DNA from: Bdellovibrio sp.
GTDB lineage: Bacteria > Bdellovibrionota > Bdellovibrionia > Bdellovibrionales > Bdellovibrionaceae
Assembly (NCBI GenBank): GCA_036676395.1
Contig: JAKFCY010000002.1
Coordinates: 1,728,001-1,792,000 of the forward strand
Direction of reading: 5' to 3'
Length of the DNA stretch: 64,000 nucleotides
Positions within the stretch are counted from its first letter, which is position 1. The number at the start of each line of letters is the position of its first letter. Below the pieces are notes generated by a model. That model was not told where the DNA came from and searched no databases. It saw only the letters and a list, made by a program, of their open reading frames with translations. Shown here in pieces: positions 43,536 to 64,000 of the stretch. The position numbers and the translations under genes were made by a program.

Positions 43536-43808
43536 GCCTGTTTTTTCTCGCACCGAGGGGGCATTGCCCCGAATAAACGTAGTGTCTCAATCTGAGAAAA
43601 ACACTTACAGCAACACTGAACTGTGTCTGATTGTGTCTGACGACGAGTTAGACACTAGGGCCCGCAATAATTGTCCTACGTCAAAATTTTAAGCCTTAAA
43701 ACAATTTTATCCTGTTTAAAGCTTTCTGAATCGGGCACTTTTCTTGAACCCTAGCTCTTCGTTGAGTTTTTATAAACGGTTATTAATTATATAAAACGGA
43801 GAAAACAT

Positions 43809-45245
43809 ATGAACATGAAAAAAGCAATTAGCGCCTTTTTAAGTACAGCATTACTGGTAAGCACAGCGACTGCTGGTCCCATCGTAAACAAATTGGGAAA
43901 AAATGCGTTTAACACACAAATTTCTGCAGGGATTGAATCAGTTCTTGGTAAGTGGACTCAGTCTGCTTCATTAAATCCTTCAGTCGTATTCTATGAAACT
44001 TTTCCGGCAAAAGGAATGTTACCTTTAAATGACGTATCTTTTGTTCCCCGTTCAGACGATTCAAATTCAGTTGTATTAACAGACTACATTTCTATCGCTG
44101 CACAATCAGCAACTGGAACTTCATTAGGTTTACGTATGGCTTTAGCACCGCAAGAATCTCGTCTTGAAGCAGCTCGTTCAATGGCTGAAAGCGGATTAAT
44201 TAAAACTGGCGACACTATCGTTTCGGTTCGTCCGATGTTTGCTAACTCATTACAATATTTAGCGATTCAATTACTTAACACGCACATTTCAACTGCTGTT
44301 GTTGTTACTGAAAATGGCCGTAAGGTTGTTTACAACATCGATATGCCGATGGATGGAGACATGTTAGGCGGAGCTTCTTTAGGTTTTGGTAAATCAGCAA
44401 TGGATTCTCCGCATTTCGTAGCTGATAACGAAAATATGATGTTACATATTTTACGCCCGCGTTTAACTGAAGCGCAAAGACAAAACATGCAAAAATGGTT
44501 TGAAAAATCTTTAGCTAAAGCCCGCGCTAAAACGATGTACCCGAAATCTTTATCTTTCAACTCAGATTACAACAGCCCGACTTACCGTGGTAGTGACATC
44601 TCTTTCGTAGGTGATGTAGGCCGTCTTTTATTAGACCAAAAATTAAAAGCTGCTGACCACTTACAAATGTTTTGTTCTGAATTTGCTTGGGTCATGTTAT
44701 CTTTACGTGACTGTAACCCAGATACTACTGCAAAAGATTTCGCAAAAAATAACACTCCGTCTTGCGTATCTAAATTTTTTGAACCAATGCAAGTTTTCGG
44801 TTCTGGCTTTAGCGGTGGTGATGTTGAAAGAGACCAATCATTATATGGTATGACTGATGGTATCCCAATGCTAATCGAGCAAACTGGTGCTGGTCCTCAA
44901 GTGGCTATGCAATTAATCGACTTCTCTTTACCAGGTACTGAAAAAGAAGCAAAAGGTTTATCGAGCGGTCATAAAGGTGTAGCTTCTGCAATGGCTCCGC
45001 TAATCGCTCAAATGAACGGTTACTTTAAATTAGCTTTATTAGACAAAACTGCTGCGAAAATCGATGGAGCAAGAGCTCAGTTAAATCCGGCTTCTCCTCG
45101 TAACTACTCGCCAACAGGTTTCTCGGTTCATGCAGCAATGCCGAACTCGATCAACGGTAAAACTGTATCACAAAAGAAATTTGACTACGTAGTAACTGTA
45201 AAATACGTACCTAAAGCTAAACTTAAAGATCTTCAATCTAAATAA
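43809..45245 (+). CDS. Secreted large permuted papain-like protein, paralogue 2
   Basis: Signal peptide; TGDTIVS, NTHIS, MFCSEF; identical C-terminus PKAKLKDLQSK. Confidence 0.65.
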   Translation: MNMKKAISAFLSTALLVSTATAGPIVNKLGKNAFNTQISAGIESVLGKWTQSASLNPSVVFYETFPAKGMLPLNDVSFVPRSDDSNSVVLTDYISIAAQSATGTSLGLRMALAPQESRLEAARSMAESGLIKTGDTIVSVRPMFANSLQYLAIQLLNTHISTAVVVTENGRKVVYNIDMPMDGDMLGGASLGFGKSAMDSPHFVADNENMMLHILRPRLTEAQRQNMQKWFEKSLAKARAKTMYPKSLSFNSDYNSPTYRGSDISFVGDVGRLLLDQKLKAADHLQMFCSEFAWVMLSLRDCNPDTTAKDFAKNNTPSCVSKFFEPMQVFGSGFSGGDVERDQSLYGMTDGIPMLIEQTGAGPQVAMQLIDFSLPGTEKEAKGLSSGHKGVASAMAPLIAQMNGYFKLALLDKTAAKIDGARAQLNPASPRNYSPTGFSVHAAMPNSINGKTVSQKKFDYVVTVKYVPKAKLKDLQSK

Positions 45246-46704: not shown

Positions 46705-47304
46705 ATGCAACAAAGCTTATATTTCAAGACCAAAGTTAATTACAGAAAAGAACACGGCGGAGACCTTTCTATATGCCGACGTAAATCTAAACGCCATCTC
46801 ACGATCAAAAATCCCTTTCATGTAACACTTAGAAGTGAGTATGCGACTGGAAAACGATCTTTGCTGCGGCATAAAAACATGATCTACAAGGTTTTACATA
46901 AGGCTTCTCGCCGTTTCGGAGTTAAGATTTATCAACAGGCGATTTGCGGTAATCATATTCATTTATTAGTACGCGGGCGACAGCGATTTGCGATTCAAAA
47001 CTTTTTTCGCGTTGTTGCAGGCCATATCGCGCAGAAAGTTCTCGAGCTCCACCCGATTTCTGATCAAGAACGCCAGCGGGGCAATGCCCTATCTAAAGAT
47101 GCAAAAGCGAAGTATCAGCGGAAATTTTGGGGAGCGTTGTTGTATTCGAGGATGGTTCGGTGGGGACGGGATTTTTCGAATGTTGTGAATTATATCGAAA
47201 GAAACATCCTGGAAGCTATCGGCTGGATTCCGTATGTGCGAAAGAAATGGCGCTATATAGAAAAAGGTGGGGCAATGCCCCACCTTTTTGAAATTCGTGA
47301 ATGA
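46705..47304 (+). mobile_element. REP-associated tyrosine transposase (RAYT / Y1 HUH) gene
   Basis: FHVTLR, NHIHLL (HUH), KFW, YIERN (catalytic Tyr); no terminal inverted repeats seen. Confidence 0.78.
47261..47289. terminator. Perfect bidirectional hairpin containing GGGGCAATGCCCC
   Basis: AAAAAGGTGGGGCA-A-TGCCCCACCTTTTT at the junction of converging genes. Confidence 0.7.
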
Positions 47305-49096: not shown

Positions 49097-49136
49097 ATTA
49101 GTCGTGAGATACATGTTGGCACATCTTTGTAAAGCT

Positions 49137-51710
49137 ATGCGTTCTTTTAACCCCATCAGATTATTCGTGGGCGCGTGTTTTATTTTGTTAACATCAGGTT
49201 GTGATTTAAAAGCAAATCTACAATCACTTTTATCAGTTTCAAATGTTCCCATTTGTGAAATTACAGACGGCAAAATTACAAATCCTCCGTGCGAATTACC
49301 TGATGGCTACGAGGAGCATTTTATTTCTGAAAATGAATTCTCTGGCCGTACCACAACAATCACTTCAGCTACTATCGCAGCGTCTTCAACACTTGTTTAC
49401 GGTGAAGAAGGCTTTGAAGGTGTAGCCGTACTTTCACAGCTTCCGATAGCTTGGTCTACGGGCTATGCCGTCTTGAGTTTAGATAAATCTTTAAATCAAC
49501 AAGGTGGAACATTTAATCCTGATTACCTTGCTAATAATATCGCGTCTGGAACTTCTATCTTTGGCTTGGCTGGTAGCTTCTTTAGCACGCAAAAAGTTTA
49601 TTGCTCTAATACAGATACAGCGTCTTCGACCTCTACTGTTCCTGGCATTGGACTTCCGGTAAATGGTAACGAATGTGTGGCTCCTGAAAATAACTTTATC
49701 TATACGACACCATTTAATGGTCGCGCCAACAACTGTAACGCTGCCGGTGGCACGAATAATTCAAGTTGTTTCATTCAACAAGCTGCCCAGGATTTATATT
49801 TAGCAAATGCAAATTCAGTTCCGTTAGCTTGTACATATAATGGTAACAACGGAACATTCTGGGATGTCTCAACTACAAGCTTAACTTACGGTAAATTAAA
49901 ATCTCCGACTATCAATAGTATTGTTCGTGACTACTGCCAAGTAGCACAAGGACAATTTTTCTATTCAGACCCATTCGGAGGACGCACGTCAGTTTGTGGT
50001 CCGGTACCAAATCCGCCATGTTTTTTAGAGATTCCACCATATCAGACTCGAACGGTAAACTTAGGTGAATCATCGACCACGCCAGTATGCCTAGAAGATC
50101 AATCAGACATTTTACCAGCAAACTGGTTAGGTGGCCTTGATGAACCGCTAAGTAAAAATTCGGCGCAATGTTTAACACCGGGTAATAACCGCTACGTTTA
50201 CAACACAGCCTATGATGGACGTTTTCGCGCTTGTAATGGAACTAATATCGGAAAATGTTATTACACTGGTTCAGAAGTTTCTGCAAATATCAGTTATATT
50301 TTTACAACAAGTGAAAATGCATCTTGTCGCACGACTTTGAATTCTTGTGTTAACACTTGTGCGACGCAAAAAGATACTTGTAATGGCTTAGCCGATGCTG
50401 ATGAGAATAAATGTTTAGGGCAATATTCACAATGTTATTATAGCTGTTACGAGCGCCCTACAGTTTCTGGAGTAACACCCGTTGGCTATGCAAAATGCGC
50501 TGACAATGCTTGTACAACGACAAAAAATTCTTGTAACACAGCTTGCGGGTCGAATGTCACATGTAAAAATAATTGTACGACAGCTTACAACGACTGTAAG
50601 TACGTTGAGAATCCACGTACTGGCATTTGGTTTTTAAATGCTTCATTTAATTTAGCAAATCCAAGAACCAAAGCTTTGATCATCCCCGTTGGCCAAAAAA
50701 AATCGGCATCAATTCCGATGGCTGATCTTTTAAATACATCTGCAATTAAAGCCGGTGTAAATATTTTCGGATTCACTGGTTCATTTGGTGGTCTTGGTGT
50801 CTGGGCATCTGGTATGCATCGTGATAAATCAATTCCACAATTAACCTTGAATGAAGAGAATAATAACTTTTCAGGTTTATCTGAAGAACCACTTCCAACA
50901 AATTTTCCGAACTTTTACGAGCCTTTTAAACCGTATCGTGAAGTGACTTCAATTGCCAAAGACGATGATGGTTCAGTCACTGATCAAAATGTATTAGCTA
51001 CTCCAAGTCGCTCTTCATGGGGACAAACCCAGTGTGGTGTCGGGGGCACGTTAACAACAATAGATCTAAAAATTTCAGATTGCGGAGCCAAATTCGGTTC
51101 ACTTTCATCTTGGGATGGCGTAACGAATGGAAATGCCGGTCAAGGTCGCTGGACACTGGTGTCGCGCAAATTAAACGCTTCTACAGGAACAATGGTTGAA
51201 GTATGGCGTGATGAAAGAACCATGATGTTATGGAGTTCTTTAATCAGCGAAGCCACTAATTGGTGTAAAGCTTCAGGCAGCAGCAACAGCACTAATGCTG
51301 CGGTAAATAACCGTTATAAAGAAAATGATCCGTCTGATATTTGTGATAATCCAAGTAACCAAAATCAAGGAGCAGCAGAGACTGTAATCAGCGCTTGTCT
51401 GGCAGATTTAGGTTTTACAAATACTGATGCAGATTTCAATATCAACGGTAAAGTAGACTTGGATTTAACTTCAGCTCCAAAAATTCACTGGCGCATCCCA
51501 ACGATGTACGATTATGAAGTCGCAGAATACAATGGCATTCGTTTCGTATTGCCAGATATGGGAACACAACGAGGCATACCGCTGGTTGAATGGACAGCTA
51601 CGGTTAACTCGGCAAATCGCAGCGAAGCCTGGGGCATCAACTCAATGGATGGAGCACACAGAGTCATCAATCGTTCTGACTTAGCGGGGGTAAGATGTAT
51701 CGGCCGCTAA
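49137..51710 (+). CDS. Large Cys-rich lipoprotein with tail-fibre-like motifs and a C-terminal DUF1566/C-type-lectin-like domain
   Basis: Lipobox TSGC; two NIxxGxxIFGxxG motifs; VWRDERTMMLW, WRIPT, EWTAT, VRCIGR; ORF track start 49104. Confidence 0.72.
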   Translation: MRSFNPIRLFVGACFILLTSGCDLKANLQSLLSVSNVPICEITDGKITNPPCELPDGYEEHFISENEFSGRTTTITSATIAASSTLVYGEEGFEGVAVLSQLPIAWSTGYAVLSLDKSLNQQGGTFNPDYLANNIASGTSIFGLAGSFFSTQKVYCSNTDTASSTSTVPGIGLPVNGNECVAPENNFIYTTPFNGRANNCNAAGGTNNSSCFIQQAAQDLYLANANSVPLACTYNGNNGTFWDVSTTSLTYGKLKSPTINSIVRDYCQVAQGQFFYSDPFGGRTSVCGPVPNPPCFLEIPPYQTRTVNLGESSTTPVCLEDQSDILPANWLGGLDEPLSKNSAQCLTPGNNRYVYNTAYDGRFRACNGTNIGKCYYTGSEVSANISYIFTTSENASCRTTLNSCVNTCATQKDTCNGLADADENKCLGQYSQCYYSCYERPTVSGVTPVGYAKCADNACTTTKNSCNTACGSNVTCKNNCTTAYNDCKYVENPRTGIWFLNASFNLANPRTKALIIPVGQKKSASIPMADLLNTSAIKAGVNIFGFTGSFGGLGVWASGMHRDKSIPQLTLNEENNNFSGLSEEPLPTNFPNFYEPFKPYREVTSIAKDDDGSVTDQNVLATPSRSSWGQTQCGVGGTLTTIDLKISDCGAKFGSLSSWDGVTNGNAGQGRWTLVSRKLNASTGTMVEVWRDERTMMLWSSLISEATNWCKASGSSNSTNAAVNNRYKENDPSDICDNPSNQNQGAAETVISACLADLGFTNTDADFNINGKVDLDLTSAPKIHWRIPTMYDYEVAEYNGIRFVLPDMGTQRGIPLVEWTATVNSANRSEAWGINSMDGAHRVINRSDLAGVRCIGR

Positions 51711-53827
51711 TTTCAATTATTTTTGTTTTTCTATTTAATGTTTCAGTCGTTCGCGCTGAAGAAATCATCGACACATCTAATCTATTTTTATGTGATCTTG
51801 AATCTATCATTACACAAAAATGTGGCGTGTTAAATACCGCTTATGTTTATGATGTTCAGTACGGCCCGCGCAGTTCAAGTTATTTACAGCACTACACGGC
51901 GAATGCCGAGGCCTCAACTATTCAGTTAGCACCAGGTTGGCATGAAGGTAATGAAATCACTTGGCAATCGATTGGTTTACGACCAGAAAACATCGTGAAA
52001 GATAAAAAGATTTTTGGTGTGGTTGGAACTCTTGATAATACCGTTTACACAAGTTGTGTAACGAATGCGGCTTCTGGACAATTAACAGCACACAACTCGA
52101 ACTTTTGTTATGCACCGGCTGGCGCATATTATGTTTATTCTTCATACTGGGGCGGACGCAATAATGAGTGTTCGTTTGTTCAAGTCGATTCAATATCATA
52201 CAAATTAGTTAATAAATTTGACGGCGAGAAGCCAAAAGGCGCTTGTTGGATCAACACACAAGACACAATAACTGCAGACGGATTTAGCATTGATGGCAAC
52301 GCCTTAAAAACTAGTGGAAATCCAAATTTTGTTATTCGTAACACGGCAACAGCAAACACCTGTTCGGTTATTGGTGGCGGTACGGGTTTACAAACAACGT
52401 CTTGCACAACTCCGGATCGTAACGATTTTAATGGTTACTTCTACCCGGCATTTGTGACAAGAACCATTAATGGGGTGGCCAAGCAGGTCAGTGGATCTTT
52501 CGGTGGCCGTGGTAAAAATTGTATTTACGGAACAAACAACGAACCTTGTTGGATTGATGATGCCGATGCTTATGTAGAAAACGATACGACTTGTAATGAA
52601 AAATATCCAGACGGAACTCCTGGTGTCAGCGCAACTTCACCATTAAATGCTTATTCTTGTAAAACAAAAGGTATTGAGCGCGCGGTGAACATTAACAATG
52701 GAATTGTTTCTTCGACTATTGGTCGTTTCGTTTACAAAACTGCACGCGGTGGAAGAAATACAGACTGCGCCCAAGGTAAAGTCGGCCTTTGTTTTACGAC
52801 AACTGATTTTAAATCCAATCTTGATCCTGATTTAGATCCGAATAACATTCAAAAAGGAATCGTTATTTTTGGCGTGCGCGGAACCTATGAAGCTCCAGAA
52901 ATCGTCTATGGCAGCGGTGCACATCGCACACCATCAAGCAGTACTGTTGCAAACAAATTGAATTACAAACAAAACTTAACTGGTGAATCTAACCGTCTTG
53001 AGGCAAATCCAAATCAAAACTCAAGTCAGATTTACCCAGCGGATTATCATGCGATTCCAAAAATAGCCACTGACTCTGAAGCGGATGTAGTTAAAGTAAA
53101 CCGTGCCACCTGGTCAAACACTCAGTGCGGAACGATCGGTACAACTTCAGCCCGTATTGCAAATTGCGTAACTGCTTTTGGCACGAACGCCACATGGAAG
53201 GGTTCTGTTAAGGGGAATGCCGGGCAAACGGATTGGGAGCTTGTAACCCGTAAACGTGATAGCGTTGATGCAAATAAAACTTATGAAGTCTGGCGTGATT
53301 CAAGCACTGGCTTATTATGGAGTTCACTGGTTTCAACAAGTCAAAATTGGTGTAAATCAACCGGTAGTAATGGTAGAAAAATTTCTGATGGTGTAGACAT
53401 GGTTTATGACCAACAAACATCTTCTGAAGATGATCCGTCAAACTATTGTGACAACCCGACTTATCAAGATCAAAATACTCCGGTTTCAGTTTGTTATATC
53501 GACATGCCCGAAAATGGCGATCCAAATTTATTTTCTACAGATTACAGTACAGCGACAACTCCAGGTAAAGCAGGTCTTCTTCCTGACCTGACGGCGGCTA
53601 CAGGCCGAGTTTACTGGCGCGTACCGACAATGTTTGATTACATTTTAGCAAATCACCACGGTCTTCGCTTTGTAATGCCAGATATCGGTGTAAATACCGA
53701 CGAAGAATGGACAGCTACGACATCAGCTTCAAATCGTAAGAATGCCTGGACATTCAGTGGTAAAACCGGCGCTCGTCAATACAAACAACGCAACAACCCT
53801 GCAGCAGTTCGCTGCATTGGCCGGTAG
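51695..53827 (+). CDS. Secreted Cys-rich paralogue with tail-fibre-like motifs and a DUF1566-like tip
   Basis: ENIVKDKKIFGVVGT, NNIQKGIVIFGVRGT, VWRDSSTGLLW, WRVPT, VRCIGR. Confidence 0.72.
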   Translation: MYRPLISIIFVFLFNVSVVRAEEIIDTSNLFLCDLESIITQKCGVLNTAYVYDVQYGPRSSSYLQHYTANAEASTIQLAPGWHEGNEITWQSIGLRPENIVKDKKIFGVVGTLDNTVYTSCVTNAASGQLTAHNSNFCYAPAGAYYVYSSYWGGRNNECSFVQVDSISYKLVNKFDGEKPKGACWINTQDTITADGFSIDGNALKTSGNPNFVIRNTATANTCSVIGGGTGLQTTSCTTPDRNDFNGYFYPAFVTRTINGVAKQVSGSFGGRGKNCIYGTNNEPCWIDDADAYVENDTTCNEKYPDGTPGVSATSPLNAYSCKTKGIERAVNINNGIVSSTIGRFVYKTARGGRNTDCAQGKVGLCFTTTDFKSNLDPDLDPNNIQKGIVIFGVRGTYEAPEIVYGSGAHRTPSSSTVANKLNYKQNLTGESNRLEANPNQNSSQIYPADYHAIPKIATDSEADVVKVNRATWSNTQCGTIGTTSARIANCVTAFGTNATWKGSVKGNAGQTDWELVTRKRDSVDANKTYEVWRDSSTGLLWSSLVSTSQNWCKSTGSNGRKISDGVDMVYDQQTSSEDDPSNYCDNPTYQDQNTPVSVCYIDMPENGDPNLFSTDYSTATTPGKAGLLPDLTAATGRVYWRVPTMFDYILANHHGLRFVMPDIGVNTDEEWTATTSASNRKNAWTFSGKTGARQYKQRNNPAAVRCIGR

Positions 53828-53829
53828 TC

Positions 53830-56800
53830 ATGAATTTTAAATTTTATCTATTATTGTTTTTATTATTAAGCGGCTGTACCGGCTCTATTTTAGAAGAAGA
53901 ACTTTTATCTAACCTGTCACAAAAAGGTGCCGGTGGTATTGAGCTTGATGAGTACATCCCGCCAGGAATCCAATTTGTCGAAAACACGACTCAGGGTATG
54001 CAACAAGAAGGTTTTCCATTTCTTCGCAATAACAGAACTTTTAATATCAAATGGATTATCAAAACTTGTGATCCTGTAAATAATCCGTTAGATGCCGCGT
54101 GCGCAAATTTACCCACAGGCACTGCTGAAAATCCAGATCCGGGCTTTTATATTACTCGTTTAGAATACACATCTGGAACAACTTACGTGCAGATTCCAGG
54201 CGCTACCAGTCTTGGTGGTTATAATGACCAGATTCAAAGTTTCAGTTGGTCAATTCCGATTTCTTTAACTGATGAGGGCGCTGATTTTCGCTTTAGATTA
54301 ATCACGCGCAATGCAAAACTTGAAGACTTCTTTGCAACTTCAAGTAGTTTTGTTATGGATAGCAGCGCTCCTGTTATTCAAACTGGTTCGTTAACTTTTA
54401 ATGGCTCGGCCGACACCCCGTTAAACCTGAAATCGCCGGGTGTTAATATTGATTTTAATGCCGATGATAATTATTCTCCGGTTGAAAGTTTTTGTTTAAA
54501 AGATTCAGCGGCTATTCCAACTGCAGACCATGCCTGCTGGTTAAAAATCACTTCTTTAGGATTAACTGAAAGTAAAAACTTACAAGTTAAAAACTTAAAA
54601 CGTGTTCTTGGCTGGATCGGCGGATCTTTTACTTTCTATTTCTGGATCAAAGACAAAGCCGGTAACTACTCACGTTTAACAAACGATGTCGGCGATGAAA
54701 CAATCGACCGTCGCACTATTTCTTATGCTCCAGGGCGCAGTGTTGCGTTCTTAAAAAACATTGCGGCAAACGATGATTCGGTTACAGATAATCCGGCGCT
54801 CGATAAAACTGTAATCAATGCTTCTGCCCCGACTGTTTTTATCAAGTGGAGTTACACCATCGATCAGAATACAACTCTGGATTCTGTGGAGCCTTATAAA
54901 ATTGAATACTCAACAGACGGCGCTACTTTTCAAAACATCACCGGCGTAAGTGAGACCGCTTTACTTGACAGTGAAATTTCAAACAACGTCAATGTGAATT
55001 GCCAAACTGTTCCTTCACAAGATCCGGCCTCTATTGATAGCTGTTATGCTTGGACCGTTCCGGCAAGTCTTCACGACGTCCCATTCTACATTCGTGTCCA
55101 TGTGCGTGATTCGGCAGGTTTCGTTTATTCAATCAGTACAAACCCTTTCAATCTAAGCACATCAACTAGCTTAGACGGAAAAGTTCAGGGTTTACGTTTT
55201 GCGGCTGGCCTTTCAGATTCATTAATCGGCGCCTCGGCGCTGAACACAAAATTTGATATCGATACGGCTTATTCTCGTACTGGCGGAAAACTCGTTGTGC
55301 ATGAAGATGGACGTATGTTTGTCTTAGATAACAGCGCAGGTATTATTGAAATCAGTCAGTTCGACGGTCGCGCACGATTATATATTAAAAAATCCACGGC
55401 ATCAGTTGACGGTTATGCTGTTGATTCGCCAGATCTGCTAGCCGGACGAACAGAAGCTGTCACTTCAAATATTATTAAAATTTCTCTCGATTACAAGGGC
55501 CGTTTGATCATCATGGAAAACAATCGTATTCGTCAGGTCACTGATGAACGTGATGCTCAAGGAAATTTAACCGGCGTTCGGTACGTAAAAACCATTGTTG
55601 GTTGTTTACAAACACCAACATCAAATTGTTATTACAATAACACTTATAAAAATACCGCTTACAATGCTAAAGTGCCAATTCAGTATTGGCAAAATGCGTG
55701 GATCAATGCCGATGAATTTACATTTCCAGGCCCAGTTAACGACTGGAACCGCCAATTCAGACATTTCACCGCACTTCCGAACGGCGATATTTATTTTTCT
55801 GTGAATGCTGACTACACGCAAGTCTCGACGGCTTTGGCAAGTAGCGCAAACAGCTGGAGAGCTTTAGACTTTCGTATTTACCGTCCAGATGCAGATCCGA
55901 CCAAACCCGGAAAGTTACTTCCCTTAAAGTTAACTGGTTATGGCGTTTTAGGTGAGCCATTTAAACCGATTTCAGAATTGTATCCACAATCAATGGGTGG
56001 ACTTACGTTTAATCCAATCACCGGAAATCCGACGACCCTTGCGATGTTCTGGGATTATTGCCCACCAAACACAACAGCTCAGTGCGAATATTTCACTTCA
56101 AATCATAATCCTAAAACCGGCCAATCAAACGGCACTGGTACACATTACTATTCATACACCATGTCGATCAAAAATTCGCTCGCTAAAGGCTATGTTGATT
56201 CACACACTTTCAGATATTTTACTTCACGTCGCGGCGAACTTTACGCTTACAACACAAACCAATTTGAAAAAGTGTTGGGTAAATTAAATACTTCGACTAA
56301 CAAGTTCGAAAGAATCTTGGGCGGTATTGGCTATGATGGCTATTGCGCCGATGGCACCTTAGCGATAGCTTGTCCTAATTATATTCGCGATGCCTGGGTG
56401 ACCCAAGATAACACCGTCTTTTTTATTGATGGGCAACAAATTCGCATGATCGGGGCCGATGGCCGCGTAGTTACACTGTTTGGCCGTAAACCTGCTGATC
56501 GCAGTGGCCTTGAAGCGACTCTTTCTACCTTAGGCCGCTTTGAGAATTTCGGCAAATGGTATGACACTAACACGTCGAGTGAAAAGTTTGTGCTGCGCGA
56601 ATACGATAGTATTTTACTGCGCGAATTCAGTATGGATAAAAAAATTGAAACCATCGCCGGCAATGAAACTACAAATTGGGGACTCACTTGGAAAGCTGCG
56701 GCCTCAAAACCCGGTTATTTTGTTTCGACCAAATTGGCTAATGCTGAAATGGGTGCATGGACTCAGGCTCACTACATTCATCCACCAGTCACTGTTGACC

Positions 56801-57693
56801 CTAATAACGGTGAAGTTTTTGATTTTACACCTGAAACCAATCGCTCAGTGATGAAATTAATCCGCTCTGGTCATCCAAGTGATACCGGCCGCTGGATGCG
56901 TATTTTAGGTGGCGGTAGTGCGGCTACGCCATATCTGAATACTAAAGGTACAAGCTCTTGCGATGGCAAAATGAACACCCAGTGTCGCGGTGATTCTAAT
57001 GGCGCCAACTATATCTTAGGCTACGTCCCTGCTAAAAACATTATCGTTAACGGTAATCCCGAAGTGCGCCCAGCGCAAATCATCACGCAATATAGCCGGG
57101 CGTTTAGTAATATCTGGCAACAAAATTATCTAAAACTTGTAAACACAGACACAGGACAACAAACCCATGTCATGGGAAACAATGATTTAGCTTCTTCTTG
57201 GGATGCCCTCCACTTCCCGAATACCTTCTCGCCAGTGTCGGTGGCCGCGACTAATAATATTGATATATTATATAACGCTGCACGAATCATCTATGATGAA
57301 AACAGAGACGCCTTATTAGTCACACGCTACGGCGGGACTACAATCGGCGCGATTACCTTTAAATCTAACTCCAACGAACAAATCACCGAAGCCGATAAAT
57401 ACTTTAATATCACCGCTGTCGGAAACGGAACCATTTTATCCTTCACGCACAACGTTCAAGAAGGTGCTGATGTATTTTATTATTGTAACAACAGCGGTCG
57501 CCTATATCGTCGTGTAGTTACAGCGGGTTTTTCTTCTGAAATTATTTTACCTTTACCAACCGGCATGACTTGTTTTGGTCGTACACTAGAAAAAACTGTG
57601 GATGATAACAATGGCGTTATCAAACTTTATTTTCCGGCGGCTTTCAAAGGTCAATATATGATGGGAGAATACAGTGTATCGCTTGATCTTTAG
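53830..57693 (+). CDS. Giant lipoprotein with Ig-like and NHL/beta-propeller-like regions (putative adhesin)
   Basis: Lipobox LSGC; DKAGN Ig-fold ends; RIRQV, TIAG, YCADG propeller-like blades. Confidence 0.65.
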   Translation: MNFKFYLLLFLLLSGCTGSILEEELLSNLSQKGAGGIELDEYIPPGIQFVENTTQGMQQEGFPFLRNNRTFNIKWIIKTCDPVNNPLDAACANLPTGTAENPDPGFYITRLEYTSGTTYVQIPGATSLGGYNDQIQSFSWSIPISLTDEGADFRFRLITRNAKLEDFFATSSSFVMDSSAPVIQTGSLTFNGSADTPLNLKSPGVNIDFNADDNYSPVESFCLKDSAAIPTADHACWLKITSLGLTESKNLQVKNLKRVLGWIGGSFTFYFWIKDKAGNYSRLTNDVGDETIDRRTISYAPGRSVAFLKNIAANDDSVTDNPALDKTVINASAPTVFIKWSYTIDQNTTLDSVEPYKIEYSTDGATFQNITGVSETALLDSEISNNVNVNCQTVPSQDPASIDSCYAWTVPASLHDVPFYIRVHVRDSAGFVYSISTNPFNLSTSTSLDGKVQGLRFAAGLSDSLIGASALNTKFDIDTAYSRTGGKLVVHEDGRMFVLDNSAGIIEISQFDGRARLYIKKSTASVDGYAVDSPDLLAGRTEAVTSNIIKISLDYKGRLIIMENNRIRQVTDERDAQGNLTGVRYVKTIVGCLQTPTSNCYYNNTYKNTAYNAKVPIQYWQNAWINADEFTFPGPVNDWNRQFRHFTALPNGDIYFSVNADYTQVSTALASSANSWRALDFRIYRPDADPTKPGKLLPLKLTGYGVLGEPFKPISELYPQSMGGLTFNPITGNPTTLAMFWDYCPPNTTAQCEYFTSNHNPKTGQSNGTGTHYYSYTMSIKNSLAKGYVDSHTFRYFTSRRGELYAYNTNQFEKVLGKLNTSTNKFERILGGIGYDGYCADGTLAIACPNYIRDAWVTQDNTVFFIDGQQIRMIGADGRVVTLFGRKPADRSGLEATLSTLGRFENFGKWYDTNTSSEKFVLREYDSILLREFSMDKKIETIAGNETTNWGLTWKAAASKPGYFVSTKLANAEMGAWTQAHYIHPPVTVDPNNGEVFDFTPETNRSVMKLIRSGHPSDTGRWMRILGGGSAATPYLNTKGTSSCDGKMNTQCRGDSNGANYILGYVPAKNIIVNGNPEVRPAQIITQYSRAFSNIWQQNYLKLVNTDTGQQTHVMGNNDLASSWDALHFPNTFSPVSVAATNNIDILYNAARIIYDENRDALLVTRYGGTTIGAITFKSNSNEQITEADKYFNITAVGNGTILSFTHNVQEGADVFYYCNNSGRLYRRVVTAGFSSEIILPLPTGMTCFGRTLEKTVDDNNGVIKLYFPAAFKGQYMMGEYSVSLDL

Positions 57694-59884
57694 AGCGCTC
57701 CTGCTCGTATTAATTTTTACTTCTTGTTCTGGCTCAATGGAAGATCTTTCAAGCCTTGAAGCTTCTAAAGGTTTTATCACTGACGGAGAAAACGTCGAAA
57801 CACCTCCAGCGGTAGATCCTGGACTAGAAACTGATCCCGGCAACGCCGGCTCTGTTCCTAGTGATGGCTCTGGTGATGGCTCAAATGTTGGCGATGGCGA
57901 TGGCAACTCATTACCTCCGGCGGCTCCAGTAATTGAAATTTTAAATGTAAATTCAAATTACTTTCGTGGTGGAATAACTCAAGATCTGATTTTTCGTGTC
58001 ACTTCACGTGTGGGTTCTGTAAGTTTAGTTGAATATGTGGTGGCCTGCCCTACACCAACTGCGATTCCTGAATTTAGCATCTTAACTGGCACAACTTCAA
58101 ATACGACCTCAGCTGTCACTATTCAATCAGGCGTGGTCTCAGTCGGTGCCGGTGAAGACACGACAGTTTCCTGGGCAACGCCCAATTTAGCCGGTGTGCG
58201 CTGCCGAAAAATCGATAATTCTTTTGAACAAGCAGATAACCGTTTTAAAATTCGCATCACCAGCGTGGGTGAATCAAATTTATCAAGCTCAGCTGAAAGC
58301 CAGGAATTTCAAATCGATTCTGAAGCGCCGATCTTAGCTGCAAGCGGTCTTACATGCATTGGTGGCAACTGCGTGATCGGTGGAGTTTCTAACTTACAAG
58401 TTTCAGGAGTTTACGATTTAGTAACCCCGGTTGCTGATATCTGTTTAAAAATGGATGATGCCACAACTCCAGAAGTGAATGATGTTTGCTGGACACCACT
58501 TTCAAGCTTAGGCATTACAGTACCAACTCTTACACCGGCAAATTTTGCATTTAATTATTTCTTAGGATTTTTACCCTTCACGATGACCAGCTATTTCTGG
58601 ACAAAAGATTCTGCCGGAAATATTTCTGAGCTGTCTGCAGCCGCTGCCGGCACAGATGCCCGCGACCGTTTAAGCATTACAACCAGCGGCACAACCCGCT
58701 TTGTAAATGATTACGCAACCCTTTCAGCGTCATCAACGGGCCTTTATCATCATGCGGCTACAGGCGAATTTTTAACGATGCCCAGCGCCAGTGTTTCAGG
58801 AATTAAAACTTATCTTGAATCATCAGCTAACTTTAGTTTAACCGTTCCGGCTCATGATAGTTTAAATTTAGCTCCGAATGGTGAAATATTTGCTAAATCC
58901 GAAGACGGCGTTTATCGCTTCGATACAAAAATTTTAGATGATGCTCCAGGTTCTACTATTAAATCTTCGTTCATTCTAAACTCAGGAACTTTCGCAGAAG
59001 GCGCTTTAGGGGCTGCGACTTTTAACCACGTTAAACGTCATGCGATTGATGCTAAAGGTGTTCACTGGTTTTTAGATGACGGAAAAATTTCCTATTTTGA
59101 CCCAAGCTCTGCAACCCCACAACTGACTTATGTTGCTGGTGGTGGTACCAGCGAAACAACAGATGTGATTGATGATCCCAAACAATTAAAAATTAACGAT
59201 AGTTTAAATATCGATGCCTTCGGTGTATTTACAGTATTACCAAATCAATGGGTGGTTTTTTCGTCGGATGATCCAACTCTTCCGGTCAGTGCCGGTGTGC
59301 CTGCAAATCGTTTTAAACTGCGTGTGTACAAGCACAGCAGCGATCCAAGTAAACGTAGCGTATCTACAGTATTTATCAGCGGCAGCACCGCTCAAGGGCC
59401 GACCGATGCTTTAGTTCCGTATTCACGCTTAGCCATTAGCTTTGATCCGATTCGTAATAACATTGCAAATATCACCGGGCGTTTTTGCGCGACCAGTTTT
59501 GTTGATGGAATTACCGATCACTGTGATAGCGCTAAATTAATTAAGTTTTATGTCAGTACGAATACGAGTCCTGAATATATGGGTTCGGTAAATCGTGATA
59601 GCTTTCTATCATTTCAATACGGAAAAGATACACTATTTATGATGGATTCAACAAAAGGCACGATTTCAAAATATGATTCAAGTTCATTTCAAAAAATCGC
59701 CGGTGGTAATAGTCTTGGAACCGATTATTGTACTAACTTTACGCCTTCAACAAGCTGTCAGTTACGTGTGCGTGATTTTAAACCGATCATGAATGGAAAC
59801 GATCAAGTGCTAATCCTGGATCAAAACTATTTACGAATTATTGAACTAGGACAAGTATTTAGTATTTTTTCGGCTGCGCCTTAG
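57674..59884 (+). CDS. Lipoprotein paralogue of 53830-57693 (Ig-like plus propeller-like)
   Basis: Lipobox TSC; shared block IDSxAP...CLK...CW...LG...YFWxKDxAGN. Confidence 0.65.
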   Translation: MYRLIFRALLLVLIFTSCSGSMEDLSSLEASKGFITDGENVETPPAVDPGLETDPGNAGSVPSDGSGDGSNVGDGDGNSLPPAAPVIEILNVNSNYFRGGITQDLIFRVTSRVGSVSLVEYVVACPTPTAIPEFSILTGTTSNTTSAVTIQSGVVSVGAGEDTTVSWATPNLAGVRCRKIDNSFEQADNRFKIRITSVGESNLSSSAESQEFQIDSEAPILAASGLTCIGGNCVIGGVSNLQVSGVYDLVTPVADICLKMDDATTPEVNDVCWTPLSSLGITVPTLTPANFAFNYFLGFLPFTMTSYFWTKDSAGNISELSAAAAGTDARDRLSITTSGTTRFVNDYATLSASSTGLYHHAATGEFLTMPSASVSGIKTYLESSANFSLTVPAHDSLNLAPNGEIFAKSEDGVYRFDTKILDDAPGSTIKSSFILNSGTFAEGALGAATFNHVKRHAIDAKGVHWFLDDGKISYFDPSSATPQLTYVAGGGTSETTDVIDDPKQLKINDSLNIDAFGVFTVLPNQWVVFSSDDPTLPVSAGVPANRFKLRVYKHSSDPSKRSVSTVFISGSTAQGPTDALVPYSRLAISFDPIRNNIANITGRFCATSFVDGITDHCDSAKLIKFYVSTNTSPEYMGSVNRDSFLSFQYGKDTLFMMDSTKGTISKYDSSSFQKIAGGNSLGTDYCTNFTPSTSCQLRVRDFKPIMNGNDQVLILDQNYLRIIELGQVFSIFSAAP

Positions 59885-61260
59885 AAATCGAGAAGAAGAC
59901 CAAACTTAGTTAAACCAAATTTACGGCTACTGCCTGCCGCGGTAGCCAATTGCATATCTTGTGTTTCAAAAATCCCGCCGATAACATATTCAGTTTTACC
60001 CACAGTCATTTTATATTTGTAGTTTAAGCCAATTTTCATGTGTGATTTTACAACTTTTGAACCTAACGAGGCCATTTCAAATTTGCCGATAACCGTGCTT
60101 TTCGGATTCATCGTGTAAATAGCGTCGGCGCCGAAAGCAAATTGTGAAGATTGAAACTTCGTGCTTGAAAGATCTTGTTTAACATCGAAGTTTCTATGCC
60201 CCGTCCATACGCCGTAATTAAAGCTCGCTTTGTTGTTTGAATAATAACCAAAGGTCATTTTTGAATCACGAGAACTCACTACCGCCGGGTCTTCACCCGT
60301 CGAAAAACTATTATAAAAACCAAAGCCCACTTTAAAAGAAGTCCAAACAAAGTCTGTTAATCCAGAAAATTCGTAGAAAAAACTTGAAGAAGAATAACTT
60401 GCAGACTCACTGGCTAAAGCCGCTGACGCCATGCCAAAATAAAATGTTTTATCAAAGCCAATCGATAAAGCCGCTGCTTTTTCTTCTAACTTTTTAACAA
60501 AAACTGCAAAGGTTAAAGTTTGGTCTTGGTGTTTAAAACGAAAAGCCCCCGAAGCCTGGCCTTTTAAATTTCCGGTGGGAATCTCAAAAGTGCGGTAACG
60601 CTCACCTTTTCCAGAAACTTCAACGATGTTGGCGCTATTCCAACGGGCTTCTTGTGGAAGCGAAATAGTCACTAAGCCTGGCGACACTGAAAAATTACAG
60701 TTAATCCCCATCGGAAAAGTCACCGCTAAATTTTTAACTTCTTTTAATTTAAAAAGTTCTTCTGGACAGTTGCGGCTCATAAGAACTTTTTGCTCAGGCT
60801 TCCATTCAATTTCATAAAGCACTTGGCCCGCTTCATCTTGAATAAAAGTTTTACCAGCGCCAGTTACAATTCTGATTTCATCAGCCATCACCGGAGTATC
60901 TAATAGATCTTCAGCGATCACAGGTGTTGCCGCAGCTGCAGTTTCGGCTTTTACCGTGCCTGATTGCTCGGGTGGCGCTGCCGTTGTTAAAATGTATTTA
61001 TTCATGAATGAAAAATCTGTTGCCGCAGAGTCGGCACCTTTGGTTCTATATTTTTGAGGCAAGATAAAACCTTTTTTTAGAACAATTTCAACCCCGTAAA
61101 CAATATTTACCTGATCAAGTTTTACAAAGCCTTCTTTGGCAGAAAATAATACGGGATTGGCCGTTGAATTATTTTTGATATCTTTTATTGTGACTTCAGC
61201 TAAAGCAAATGACGAAAAGACCAATGAAAATAGAAGAGTTTTGATTTGACCTAGATGCAT
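59881..61260 (-). CDS. Putative outer-membrane beta-barrel protein with N-terminal periplasmic domain
   Basis: Signal peptide; alternating strands in the C-terminal half; terminal FGLLLDF. Confidence 0.65.
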   Translation of the reverse strand: MHLGQIKTLLFSLVFSSFALAEVTIKDIKNNSTANPVLFSAKEGFVKLDQVNIVYGVEIVLKKGFILPQKYRTKGADSAATDFSFMNKYILTTAAPPEQSGTVKAETAAAATPVIAEDLLDTPVMADEIRIVTGAGKTFIQDEAGQVLYEIEWKPEQKVLMSRNCPEELFKLKEVKNLAVTFPMGINCNFSVSPGLVTISLPQEARWNSANIVEVSGKGERYRTFEIPTGNLKGQASGAFRFKHQDQTLTFAVFVKKLEEKAAALSIGFDKTFYFGMASAALASESASYSSSSFFYEFSGLTDFVWTSFKVGFGFYNSFSTGEDPAVVSSRDSKMTFGYYSNNKASFNYGVWTGHRNFDVKQDLSSTKFQSSQFAFGADAIYTMNPKSTVIGKFEMASLGSKVVKSHMKIGLNYKYKMTVGKTEYVIGGIFETQDMQLATAAGSSRKFGLTKFGLLLDF

Positions 61261-61274
61261 GCCTTAATAGGTTA

Positions 61275-61946
61275 TTAATCTGCGTTATCTAATGCAATGT
61301 TTTTCTTGCTGCCGCGATAAGCGAGTACAAACATCACAACAAGAATAATAAAACTTATAGTAACTAGACCACCACCGGTATCGTGGGGTTGTTCCGAAGC
61401 CGGAGCCCGCTCAGCAATAACAAGCGTACCCTCTGTGGTTTTCTCGTTCGCCATAGCAAGCTGTTGATCTAAAGAGTTCTTCTGAGCTTGGCCTTTGGCA
61501 CTGCTGGTTTCTGCAAATGATTTTTTTGCATGATAAACTTTAACCTGTACCGAAGTGTTGGTTGCAAAGTCTGACACTTGGAACCGGTTTAAAGCTAAGA
61601 CCTCAATCCATGCATTCGAATACCCAATATGTTCATCTAAAGTGGTTTTAAAATCAGACTTTGTTAAAGTCACTAATTGATACGGACAGCGTTCTAATTC
61701 GTGGTTATTTAAAACTTTTTCTTTATGTTCATCTGCACGGGGCAAACTAGAATTAAAATAAACAAATTGTCCTGGTGCAAGCCCGCGCGATACACTGGCA
61801 TCGATTTTTTCAATATCTGCCGTTTTACCACCCAAACGTTTTATCGTTTTACGAATACCAGAAAGTGTATCACCGGGTTTAACGATGTAAACCGCGTTGA
61901 CTGTGATTCCACTTTTAGCAAAAGTTTGGGTTTGGTACTGCTTCAT
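61275..61946 (-). CDS. LysM-like domain protein with C-terminal TM helix
   Basis: YIVKPGDTLSGI; LVTISFIILVVMFVLAY anchor; TAATG-coupled to the upstream gene. Confidence 0.65.
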   Translation of the reverse strand: MKQYQTQTFAKSGITVNAVYIVKPGDTLSGIRKTIKRLGGKTADIEKIDASVSRGLAPGQFVYFNSSLPRADEHKEKVLNNHELERCPYQLVTLTKSDFKTTLDEHIGYSNAWIEVLALNRFQVSDFATNTSVQVKVYHAKKSFAETSSAKGQAQKNSLDQQLAMANEKTTEGTLVIAERAPASEQPHDTGGGLVTISFIILVVMFVLAYRGSKKNIALDNAD

Positions 61947-62773
61947 TAGTTAAATTTTTTCAAATTAATTTTTTTAGTTTTAGAACGATTGTCATCGTCA
62001 TCTTTTAATAATATTTTTTCGACTAATTTTTCCTGGCCGTTAACTACAATGAAAAGTGAAACTTCATTCGCTGATTCATCACCGCGGCTATTATACAAAG
62101 AAATATCAAAACTGTATTCACCGTCTTTAGGCGCTGTTGTTTTAAACATTTCAACACCTGGTCCACGATCTGAATCATTTACGAATTCATCAGGATCGGT
62201 ATCAGATAATTTGCGGTTTTTGAAATTAAGTTCTTGGCCTAATGGTGTTGTCACTTTTAAATCGACGTCATGACTTCTATTAGCCCATTTCACAAACACG
62301 ATCACACTTGTTGCATCAGCTGGTATTGCTTTCGTAGAAGCTACACCACGTGCAGCTTCTTGCATTTTGTTTTGAGCTGTTTTTGAAAATTGTGCAATTT
62401 TAACAATGGCTAAATCTTTTGTGCTTAATTCATCTTTAGCTTGTGATAATTGTGAACGTAATTTATTTACATCTGAATTTAATGACGCGATAATTTTTTT
62501 CAGTTCTTCAGTATCTGCATTAGCCACCATTTTATCCATGGCTGAACTTTGTTCAACTGCAGATGACTGAAAACCTTTTTCAGACATTTTTTTAAGTTCT
62601 TTTTCAACAGCATCAGCAACACTTTTATTCTTTAGCGCAAAAGAATATAACATTACGAATAGACCAAACAATAAAGTCATCATATCCGCATAACTGACTA
62701 GCCACTTTTCATCAACGTGGGGAACCCCGTGAGAATCGCTATGACGTTTTTTACGACGCACTCGCCACCTCAT
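61946..62773 (-). CDS. MotB-like protein (MotB TM + coiled coil + YfaP/DUF2135-like domain, no OmpA domain)
   Basis: WLVSYADMMTLLFGLFVMLYS; W..HDVDLKVTTP.G...DSDRGPGVE; start 62773 or GTG 62761. Confidence 0.78.
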   Translation of the reverse strand: MRWRVRRKKRHSDSHGVPHVDEKWLVSYADMMTLLFGLFVMLYSFALKNKSVADAVEKELKKMSEKGFQSSAVEQSSAMDKMVANADTEELKKIIASLNSDVNKLRSQLSQAKDELSTKDLAIVKIAQFSKTAQNKMQEAARGVASTKAIPADATSVIVFVKWANRSHDVDLKVTTPLGQELNFKNRKLSDTDPDEFVNDSDRGPGVEMFKTTAPKDGEYSFDISLYNSRGDESANEVSLFIVVNGQEKLVEKILLKDDDDNRSKTKKINLKKFN

Positions 62774-63614
62774 CTTTTGGTGGTTCCTCCACCGGAATTG
62801 CTGGCTGTTCATAGCTGGCAATAAATTTACCTAATGATTTTCTAACGGCCATTTGTTCATTGATATCTAAACCAAAAGTAATGACCTCAGTTAAGCTTTC
62901 AAATGACACGCCTTCTTTTTCTTTTACGATCGCTTCAGCGATAACTTCACGGATATGATTATCATCTTCAGCTAATTGAAACGCATAATCGGCCAAGGGT
63001 AAGAACACGAAATTGGCTAAACCGATTCCCCAGAAAGTGGCTGTTAAGGCCACCGCCATGGCTTTACCCATCGCCTCTGGGCCGCCCGATCCTAAATTAG
63101 TCATCATCTGAATCATACCCGTTGAAGCTCCGAGAAGACCTAAAGCTGGTGGATATTTAGAAATATTAAGTAAAACTTTTGCGTACGCTTGGTAGCGGAT
63201 TTTAAAATTTTGTACGCGCATGGCCATAGCTTCATAAACTTCATCCGGCTTCATGTGTGGTTCACGCAATAATAGTAATCCGTCTAATACGAACATGTGG
63301 TTGTATTTACGTTTTTTCGCATCAAAAAATGGGGATTTATTCTGATACAACGATGTTAATAACTCATAAACCACTTCGATATCGTATGAACTCTTTTTTA
63401 AGAAGAATCCGTAGATTAAGAAGTCGATAAGTTCTGAAACCATCTTAAACGAGTACGATAAAAGCGTAATCGCGATGGTTCCGCCGAACACTAAGGCTAA
63501 GGCATGCGTATTCGCAAAAATCGATAGATCCGCAAATCCACTGAAAACCCCGACATACATCACAAAGCCGAGAGCAATAAGTCCAAACCATATTGATCTA
63601 ATTTTCATAACCAT
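62751..63614 (-). CDS. MotA/TolQ/ExbB proton-channel family protein (MotA-like)
   Basis: LVFGGT, YPPALGLLGASTGMIQMM, MAVALTATFWGIGLANFVFLP. Confidence 0.85.
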   Translation of the reverse strand: MVMKIRSIWFGLIALGFVMYVGVFSGFADLSIFANTHALALVFGGTIAITLLSYSFKMVSELIDFLIYGFFLKKSSYDIEVVYELLTSLYQNKSPFFDAKKRKYNHMFVLDGLLLLREPHMKPDEVYEAMAMRVQNFKIRYQAYAKVLLNISKYPPALGLLGASTGMIQMMTNLGSGGPEAMGKAMAVALTATFWGIGLANFVFLPLADYAFQLAEDDNHIREVIAEAIVKEKEGVSFESLTEVITFGLDINEQMAVRKSLGKFIASYEQPAIPVEEPPKDEVASAS

Positions 63615-63620
63615 TCCCCT

Positions 63621-64000
63621 TTAATTAGCCACACTAATAATTTCGCGCGTGCGATGTGTTAAACGAACCACATCCCCATTCATATTCAGCAAACGAATTT
63701 GCTGAAACGCGCTTTGATTGTTTAAGTTCGTAAATTTAAATTCTGAAGTAAAATTGAAATACTGAGAGGCACTTTCAGCCAATTCTTTAGTAACAACGAT
63801 GTTTTGTTCAAGCACCGTATGTAAGTGTGCCGCTTTTTGCACTTCTGAAAAAGGTTTACCAAAATATAACATTTCACCTGTTTGTGGGCTCATGTGAATA
63901 ACAGCACTACCTTTAGCCGCACACAGCATAAATGATTTAAACACGCCACTATCATTCATCTTATGTTTTAGAAAACTTTCAATATCTAAGAGTGAGTTCA
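63621..64000 (-). CDS. Hypothetical protein (partial; frame open to the window edge)
   Basis: Frame stays open upstream of the ORF-track ATG 63959 (NSLLDIESFLKHK-M); stop lies 6 bp before motA-like start. Confidence 0.55.
   Translation of the reverse strand, partial: NSLLDIESFLKHKMNDSGVFKSFMLCAAKGSAVIHMSPQTGEMLYFGKPFSEVQKAAHLHTVLEQNIVVTKELAESASQYFNFTSEFKFTNLNNQSAFQQIRLLNMNGDVVRLTHRTREIISVAN

Follow-up and report, generated by a model that had tools for sequence, protein, structure and literature searches.

A 64,000-nt stretch of a Bdellovibrio sp. genome (G000:C2:1728001-1792000, hereafter the window; coordinates are window positions unless a G000 or L number is given) contains at its end a minus-strand operon encoding a MotA-like A subunit, a MotB-like B subunit and a predicted outer-membrane β-barrel protein. 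We think that these proteins probably constitute a non-flagellar, MotAB-derived motor which, with the barrel as its partner, transmits force across the envelope. Ion-driven 5:2 motors power flagella, the Ton and Tol systems, gliding, type 9 secretion and Zorya defence, and with every new output module further envelope biology has come to light. A first-pass annotation, made from the DNA letters, had described the pair as a repurposed, non-flagellar motor of the MotAB type, and this description held up: PF01618 and MotB_plug are kept in the pair, and the FliG-contact loop and the OmpA-like anchor are absent. More tentative is the specific proposal that the motor serves surface lipoproteins.

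The motor pair and the C-terminal domain of its B subunit

The MotA-like protein (62751-63614, minus strand, 287 aa) matches the Pfam family MotA_ExbB (PF01618, E 6.2e-18) and can be aligned with E. coli MotA over its length, its cytoplasmic loop being shorter. Some 25 residues are absent exactly at the position of E. coli MotA R90 and E98, in agreement with the earlier remark that no FliG-contact motif could be seen in this loop. All 16 MotA-like proteins that were aligned (the window protein and 15 relatives) have a gap at the E98 position, and the channel prolines P173 and P222 are kept throughout this set, except for a Ser at 173 in two relatives. The flagellar-type MotA of the same genome retains both the R and the E charge and matches MotA_N (PF20560) at 4e-30, whereas the MotA-like protein has no match to that family at E≤1. 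The NCBIfam matches of the motor pair were all to flagellar stator families and lay far below the cut-offs (best 87.6 bits versus 237). In a tree of 27 rows, which included E. coli ExbB and TolQ, four ExbB/TolQ-type genes of the same genome and two flagellar MotAs, a 98/97 branch separated the MotA-like proteins from E. coli ExbB/TolQ and from the genome's own four ExbB/TolQ-type genes. Judged from these alignments, the MotA-like protein lacks the FliG-contact loop and has kept its channel helices.

The MotB-like protein (61946-62821, minus strand) is 291 aa long when read from a TTG codon; gene callers start it at Met17, which gives 275 aa and the coordinates 61946-62773 that the first-pass annotation had used. 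It matches MotB_plug with an E-value of 2.9e-14 (52.8 bits versus a cut-off of 24). The transmembrane (TM) motif WLVSYADMMTLL is present as had been read, and its conserved Asp, Asp46 in the 291-aa frame, is the counterpart of E. coli MotB Asp32 in the alignment. The plug/TM helix and the C-terminal domain are joined by a charged stalk of about 110 residues, and weak coiled-coil-type Pfam matches extend across residues 54-170. Relatives of this protein, where they have been given a public name, are called "flagellar motor protein MotB" or "hypothetical protein".

The C-terminal domain (residues 172-291; 61949-62308, minus strand) was aligned with 29 relatives (alignment A1), and the AlphaFold model built on this alignment is an eight-strand β-sandwich with a pLDDT of 95.9. 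A fold search independent of Foldseek placed TerD first (2qz7_B, Z 9.1, rmsd 3.7, 115 of 120 residues aligned), with a second TerD match (2kxt, Z 8.2) and Ig-like folds following at Z ~6. Foldseek with the same model returned nothing at E≤0.001, its top row being a TerD-like protein. No OmpA-like chain stood in either fold-search list, a result which by itself does not exclude an OmpA-like fold. When the PDB was searched by sequence with the domain profile, no match had an E-value below 0.019, and TerD was not matched at the sequence level.

By profile comparison, the domain is homologous to the E. coli protein YfaP, which is annotated as DUF2135. The A1 profile aligned to YfaP by hhalign with a probability of 99.2% (E 3e-19). 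Because A1 held a genuine YfaP-like protein (L029), the profile was rebuilt from 26 sequences, without L029, L018, L028 and L031 (alignment A4); the A4 profile matched YfaP at 97.3% (E 2.6e-11, 90 columns), against 0.1% for an E. coli MotB control. At the level of single-sequence Pfam searches, of the three families against which the first-pass annotation had suggested a HMMER comparison, MotB_plug was found, and OmpA and DUF2135 gave no match at E≤1 for the window's MotB-like protein. The Pfam model for DUF2135 (PF09906) spans just 48 residues; 4 of 30 relatives match it at E≤1, and only L029 does so above the cut-off (44.6 bits). An Atlas search with the domain pointed to a DUF2135 cluster at 0.89, to be taken as a lead only. 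The signature W...DVDL...GPGVE, first picked out by eye, proved real and conserved: W8, H13, D14, D16, D45, G49, P50, G51, E53, G63, Y65 and G76 (domain numbering) are invariant in 26 relatives. The cluster formed by D14, D16, D45 and E53 is reminiscent of the Ca2+ sites of TerD, and by analogy the conserved Asp/Glu cluster might bind Ca2+. The domain is thus, as had been proposed, YfaP/DUF2135-like and not OmpA-like.

The L029 protein was itself picked up by the domain query. It is a 259-aa protein (L029:1420-2199, genome G173) with a true DUF2135 match (44.6 bits) and without a MotB-type anchor. Its size is that of E. coli YfaP, and a stand-alone form of the domain thus exists in the same phylum.

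The barrel partner and the distribution of the family

The gene for the barrel protein (59881-61260, minus strand) encodes 459 aa with a signal peptide, an all-β N-terminal domain and a C-terminal 10-strand β-barrel. In the model of the whole protein (mean pLDDT 66), ten long strands occupy residues 269-458 with a pLDDT of ~70-91; the N-terminal domain (residues 137-255) is all-β at lower confidence, and there is in addition a disordered insert. The best Foldseek matches of this model were OpcA, NspA and Pla/OmpT, among 42 matches at E≤0.001. An alignment of 15 barrel-family proteins showed invariant C165, C188, G217 and K218, a GKGERW motif and a nearly invariant terminal F459. With its signal peptide, antiparallel barrel and C-terminal Phe, the protein is predicted to be an outer-membrane β-barrel. 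An Atlas search with it returned unnamed clusters at 0.90 with low shared counts and was uninformative.

We examined the neighbourhood of the motor pair in 20 loci, namely the window, a paralogous locus in the same genome and 18 of 29 other places, with genes classed by iterated HMMs (hidden Markov models). A member of the barrel family was found within ~10 kb of the pair, and often adjacent to it, in 17 of the 20; the three loci that had none near the pair were L044, where the contig stops short, L047 and L049. The barrel profile (A2) was also searched in the same 401 genomes of the phylum in which the domain had been sought. The domain occurs in 26 of these genomes, belonging to 18 of 203 genera, and one of the 26, G173, carries the YfaP-like protein and not a motor subunit. 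The barrel occurs in 23 genomes, 22 of which also have the domain; the domain genomes that lack it are G093, G289, G209 and the YfaP-type G173. Among the 375 genomes without the domain, a single barrel match was obtained, and this was a 26-bit partial match. Copy numbers track as well (2 barrels and 2 domains in each of G000, G156 and G301), and the co-occurrence covers at least 7 families of the phylum. The co-conservation of the barrel gene with the motor pair, on which the first-pass annotation had staked its reading, was therefore found both by locus (17/20) and by genome (22/26 versus 1/375), and the barrel appears from this pattern of inheritance to be a conserved, dedicated partner of the pair.

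Within the window's own genus, 4 of 13 other genomes have the domain, and G301 and G156 are the only genomes with close orthologs (79-81% identity) of the window's motB-like gene. No copy of the domain was found in the 26 sampled genomes of genus g3. When the A1 profile was searched against a library of 1.84 billion representatives, 4046 matched at E≤0.001, 791 at E≤1e-10 and 158 at E≤1e-30. Among the best 150 representatives, 113 have a MotB-type TM/plug motif (258-582 aa, median 365), 13 have a second type of anchor (NVFSxSAIDLF, with an Asp) and two further proteins have near-variants of it; most of the others in the best 150 are either giant repeat proteins or pieces that lack the N-terminus. 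The 11 named records are all from Bdellovibrionota, but these were found through one narrow peptide pattern and do not represent the family's full range. On sequence grounds, proteins that combine a MotB-like N-terminus with a DUF2135-type domain form a family.

Genes for proteins with the second anchor adjoin genes for a divergent PF01618 protein (8.5e-11) and a small FHA-domain protein. By eye this anchor had seemed ExbD/TolR-like, a candidate assignment that was unsupported, as Pfam gave neither an ExbD nor a MotB_plug match in four such proteins. In two loci (L039:7457-7891 and L043:7475-7906), the gene for the FHA-domain protein (144 aa, E 2.2e-10) extends into the beginning of the gene for the divergent PF01618 protein, which hints at phospho-dependent control of this motor variant.

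The operon, its lipoprotein neighbours and the other motor loci

The first-pass annotation had described a tightly coupled set of minus-strand genes, and its five open reading frames (ORFs) at 59881-64000 are all present in the ORF list, with overlaps or gaps of ≤14 nt at the junctions. The extent of the operon had been underestimated: when the flanking genome is read beyond the end of the window, it comprises seven genes, still joined by overlaps or gaps of ≤14 nt. The most upstream, g598 (67005-68801, minus strand, 598 aa), and the following g564 (65336-67030, minus strand, 564 aa) lie outside the window. They are followed by g572 (63621-65339, minus strand), which encodes a 572-aa membrane protein, has only its 3' end (63621-64000) inside the window and is separated from the motA-like gene by 6 nt. 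Scans for promoters and terminators over the operon gave numbers at shuffle level (31 promoters versus 31.9, 13 terminators versus 10.3); consequently, the operon boundaries are drawn from gene spacing alone. The G+C content of the operon is 35-41%, slightly lower than the 40-45% found upstream of it. The flanking genes are unrelated (a Na+/H+ exchanger, an IS200-like transposase, a PhoD-like phosphatase and MsrB), and a Pfam scan found no flagellar family among the flanking genes scanned, as expected from the earlier observation that no flagellar genes were in view.

Between the motB-like gene and the barrel gene lies the gene for a 223-aa protein (61275-61946, minus strand) with a LysM-like stretch at residues 18-65 and one C-terminal TM segment followed by basic residues; no N-terminal signal peptide is obvious from its sequence. 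The first-pass annotation had coupled a LysM gene to the motor and supposed that anchoring to the cell wall was outsourced to its product. The gene is indeed adjacent, but the LysM assignment is weak: the Pfam match to LysM has an E-value of 0.041 and 14.3 bits, against a cut-off of 20.9, over 12 residues. The NCBIfam MltD family matches at E 0.0021, a three-sequence profile of residues 18-65 aligned by hhalign to a LysM repeat of MltD at 82.6% (E 9.7e-6, 45 columns, 40% identity), and a sequence search of the PDB with the 223-aa protein gave no match. Furthermore, the gene is present in only 3 of the 20 loci, the window and two same-genus orthologs, so that it is not co-conserved with the pair; with the assignment below threshold, the outsourcing of wall anchoring to this protein is not borne out, and we treat it as a genus-specific accessory. 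The genes g598, g564 and g572 have the same distribution. No family was found for any of the three in Pfam, in NCBIfam or by a homolog search; g564 has a weak Por_Secre_tail match (E 0.011) that lies below the cut-off, and the relatives of g572 are close and unnamed only (11 proteins, 58-94% identity). In the window, the system is present as a diverged second copy, specific to the lineage, which has gained four genes: g598, g564, g572 and the LysM-like gene.

The first-pass annotation had left out the linked genes for giant lipoproteins that occupy the plus strand at 49104-59884, and also the other, paralogous copy of the system that this genome carries. Convergent with the barrel gene is big736 (57674-59884, plus strand), which encodes a 736-aa predicted lipoprotein with the lipobox LIFTSC. 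It is preceded by big1287 (53830-57693, plus strand), for a 1287-aa predicted lipoprotein with the lipobox LLLSGC, and this by two tandem genes for YGGR-repeat proteins of 868 and 710 aa (49104-53827, plus strand), each of which ends in ...VRCIGR. Parts of big1287 are homologous to big736, and its only Pfam matches are sub-threshold (TEN_NHL, Big_3_2). The YGGR-repeat proteins have a weakly Lcl_C-like C-terminus (E 0.0091 and 0.00072, below the cut-off). Homologs of big736 stand next to motor and barrel in L002, L034-L036 and L040, and homologs of big1287 in the paralogous locus, L034, L035 and L040. Other loci have different sets of large proteins in place of big736, big1287 and the YGGR-repeat proteins. 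In the four distant loci scanned (L037, L038, L039 and L050), the largest neighbour is in every case an S8 subtilase (E 1e-31 to 1e-47). Lipoboxes were found in nearly all large neighbours of the cassette, and the C-termini of several of these proteins have a similar Cys-x(3-6)-Cys motif. The motor cassette is thus accompanied by large lipoproteins, which are often S8 subtilases.

The lipoboxes and ends of these proteins have features of their own. In the subtilases and several other large neighbours (L037, L038, L039, L043, L046, L050 and L051), the lipobox has the unusual context F/A-Q-N-C-G/A. Other large lipoproteins, from different loci, have Cys-x(3-6)-Cys ends such as ...SCTEVCP and ...NCSETCP. 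These contexts and ends may represent a shared sorting or docking element.

Three loci of the genome encode MotB_plug proteins: a flagellar-type pair (C2:418007-419887), the window pair and a paralogous pair (C2:2568188-2570172) that carries the same C-terminal domain. At the paralogous locus the genes lie on one strand in the order motA, motB, YGGR, YGGR, big1287-like, barrel, big736-like. Directly upstream of this pair and on the same strand is a gene for a 2197-aa protein (G000:C2:2570321-2576914; L002:12321-18914, minus strand) with a C-terminal Peptidase_S74 (endosialidase chaperone) match at E 2.1e-7; it looks like a self-cleaving, fibre-type surface protein. The flagellar-type MotB (G000:C2:418934-419887; L003:4934-5884) is 56% identical to E. 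coli MotB over the TM/plug region; for its C-terminal half there was no Pfam OmpA match at E≤0.1 and no BLAST match, and its wall-binding domain may be highly diverged.

Some further features of the region were recorded. The convergent barrel gene and big736 overlap by 4 nt at their stop codons (59881-59884), which leaves no space for terminators; the same 4-nt overlap is found in the ortholog locus L034, and a 15-nt gap in L035. An IS200-like Y1 transposase gene (PF01797, E 1.4e-6) lies at 46705-47304 on the plus strand, ~1.8 kb upstream of the genes for the YGGR-repeat and giant lipoproteins. Farther away, at 42102-45245 on the plus strand, two tandem genes encode paralogous proteins of 477 and 478 aa with similar signal-peptide-like N-termini and near-identical C-termini (...KYLPKAKLKDLQSK), neither of which has a Pfam family. 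Outside the window, L001:15333-18998 (74333-77998) contains a reading frame of ~1,220 aa (1,211 aa from the first start codon) without a Pfam family at E≤0.001.

A working model, its alternatives and what the family may mean

How might such a motor work? As in its relatives, the A and B subunits would presumably assemble in the inner membrane as a 5:2 complex, in which ion flow would turn the B-subunit axle relative to the A ring. Because the cytoplasmic FliG-contact loop is lost, output in the periplasm, by way of the stalk, is most likely; the B-subunit stalk would deliver the work there, as has been proposed for ExbBD-TonB, GldLM and the vWA (von Willebrand factor A) transducers. The tip of the stalk probably engages the periplasmic N-terminal domain of the 10-strand barrel, and the clients of the cassette are probably the large lipoproteins whose genes adjoin it, the giant and YGGR-repeat proteins here and S8 subtilases elsewhere, which may be exposed, released or moved at the cell surface. 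One possibility that we put forward tentatively is that the whole is a motor-powered route for surface display or secretion of large lipoproteins, subtilases included, with swappable clients and two interchangeable types of motor.

Several observations weigh against a trans-envelope transducer of this kind. That the stalk tip touches the barrel is proposed solely from their co-inheritance, and since related genomes are not independent, the counts of co-occurrence overstate it. A complex prediction with barrel residues 20-262 and the domain (A2, A4), run without controls, scored 0.13 against a mark of 0.32 and counts neither way. With 10 strands, the barrel would make a narrow pore for the passage of proteins, and export through it is doubtful unless it forms an oligomer or serves for docking only. 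The length of the whole B subunit varies from 258 to 582 aa, which is a poor fit to a fixed span. The distribution is patchy (26 of the 401 sampled genomes and 0 of the 26 in genus g3), and thus the system is no core function of the phylum. The MotA-like proteins group only loosely with the flagellar MotAs (88/78, with long branches, in the 27-row tree). Lastly, the flagellar-type MotB of the same genome is likewise without a Pfam OmpA match; a missing OmpA match alone is thus weak evidence, and it is the fold match and the homology to YfaP that carry the case for a non-OmpA domain.

In its set of components, a motor with an outer-membrane barrel and several lipoproteins, the cassette is similar to the gliding machines that are known. 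It is conceivable, though in our judgement unlikely, that the cassette is a gliding or surface-adhesin motor that moves large lipoproteins on the surface in the manner of GldLM-SprB or AglRQS-Glt, an explanation that overlaps with the force transducer we favour except in the output. The giant neighbours, with their weak NHL- and Ig-like matches, would fit it, and a passage of a 2026 review (PMC13104615) describes the gliding motor and adhesins of Bdellovibrio as unidentified. However, since it was not found in 375 of the 401 sampled genomes, which include all 26 of genus g3 and 9 of the 13 others of its own genus, this motor cannot be a general gliding motor, and many loci have subtilases rather than adhesin-like proteins as neighbours. 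The likeness to GldLM/PorLM is one of analogy only (a periplasm-spanning all-β arm, a link to the outer membrane and large surface proteins); the same part of PMC13104615 states that GldLM is not homologous to MotAB, and Pfam scans of the proteins studied here gave no significant match to GldL, GldM or another family of type 9 secretion.

We consider it quite unlikely that the motor instead energises the barrel for uptake, or tethers or stabilises the outer membrane, in the way of the Ton and Tol systems, with the lipoprotein genes as mere neighbours. Coupling of an inner-membrane ion motor to an outer-membrane barrel, to which it is presumed to send force, follows the logic of ExbBD-TonB and TolQR-TolA as set out in part of PMC12204202, and the barrel is small, as a channel or anchor might be. 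Against this stand the 98/97 branch that splits the A subunits from ExbB/TolQ and the recurrence of large lipoprotein genes beside the cassette in loci that are distant from one another. The scanned neighbours included no TonB- or TolA-like family, and no separate transducer of that kind was seen; the B subunit itself bears the stalk, and its partner has 10 strands versus 22 in TonB-dependent transporters. The same part of PMC12204202 (Mol Biol Evol 2025) describes an analogous design, a transpore helix with an Asp fused to a periplasmic vWA domain, which is proposed to rotate in a pentamer and to pull at the outer membrane. Here too a B-type helix with a conserved Asp is joined to a periplasmic domain other than a wall-binding one. 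As described there, these transducers differ in having a vWA domain and a TolQ-like pentamer and in occurring mainly in Proteobacteria and Verrucomicrobia, whereas the present family combines a MotB-plug helix, a coiled stalk, a DUF2135/TerD-like sandwich and a barrel partner in Bdellovibrionota.

If the label "flagellar motor protein MotB" were correct, the pair would be an additional stator that swaps into the flagellar motor under some conditions, which we regard as very unlikely. The public names of relatives, the MotB_plug match, the best NCBIfam matches, all to flagellar families, and the loose grouping with flagellar MotA would agree with this, and the pair shares with MotAB/PomAB a PF01618 A subunit with both prolines, an equivalent of D32 and adjacent, overlapping genes. 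The deleted R90/E98 loop, the missing MotA_N match and NCBIfam scores far below the cut-offs speak against it, as do a C-terminus that is a YfaP-homologous β-sandwich instead of an OmpA-like, wall-binding domain and the tight linkage to barrel and lipoprotein genes in place of flagellar ones. According to the part of PMC12505986 that bears on this, MotA homologs split into flagellar (FIT) and generic groups, and the plug is typically missing from generic B subunits. Judged by this division, as given there, the family is intermediate, with the plug kept and both the torque interface and the OmpA domain lost; members of it may be among the 272 generic homologs of that study.

The C-terminal domain has likenesses of its own. 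Its homology to E. coli YfaP extends over ~90-111 columns, with the motifs W..D.DL and D...G.G.E in common; YfaP differs from the motor protein in being a 258-aa protein, encoded in a yfaA-yfaP gene cluster, without a motor anchor. TerD, its best structural match, has no sequence-level match to it.

The long tail of Zorya sits on ZorA and is cytoplasmic. A Zorya-like anti-phage system, in which an envelope MotAB-like sensor would trigger an effector, is scarcely credible: PADLOC gave weak ZorB matches (E 3.8e-5, residues 37-131) that cover only the shared plug/TM region of the MotB-like protein, whose long stalk is reminiscent of the Zorya tail, but detected neither ZorA nor any further defence family among the five proteins of the operon, and what is conserved beside the pair is a barrel and lipoproteins instead of nucleases or helicases. 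The role in phage sensing that the first-pass annotation had entertained is therefore not upheld.

No description of this architecture was found in the literature searched on 5:2 motors and Bdellovibrio stators, the supplements of PMC12505986 lying outside that search. In the literature searched, no paper mentioning the term DUF2135 was found, nor, judged by title and abstract, any paper on the function of YfaP; the motor operon offers a first functional context for DUF2135/YfaP. The family is a clean natural example of a stator turned to another use, in which plug and channel were kept, both flagellar interfaces were lost, and a new periplasmic tip and a barrel partner were gained. Stator counts in predatory bacteria are probably inflated by the label "flagellar motor protein MotB", given the 158 representatives at E≤1e-30. 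Through the link to lipoproteins and subtilases, it becomes possible to test how these predators bring large hydrolases or adhesins to the cell surface. If the transducer that we propose is real, it would be a previously unrecognised ion-driven trans-envelope machine of predatory Bdellovibrionota.

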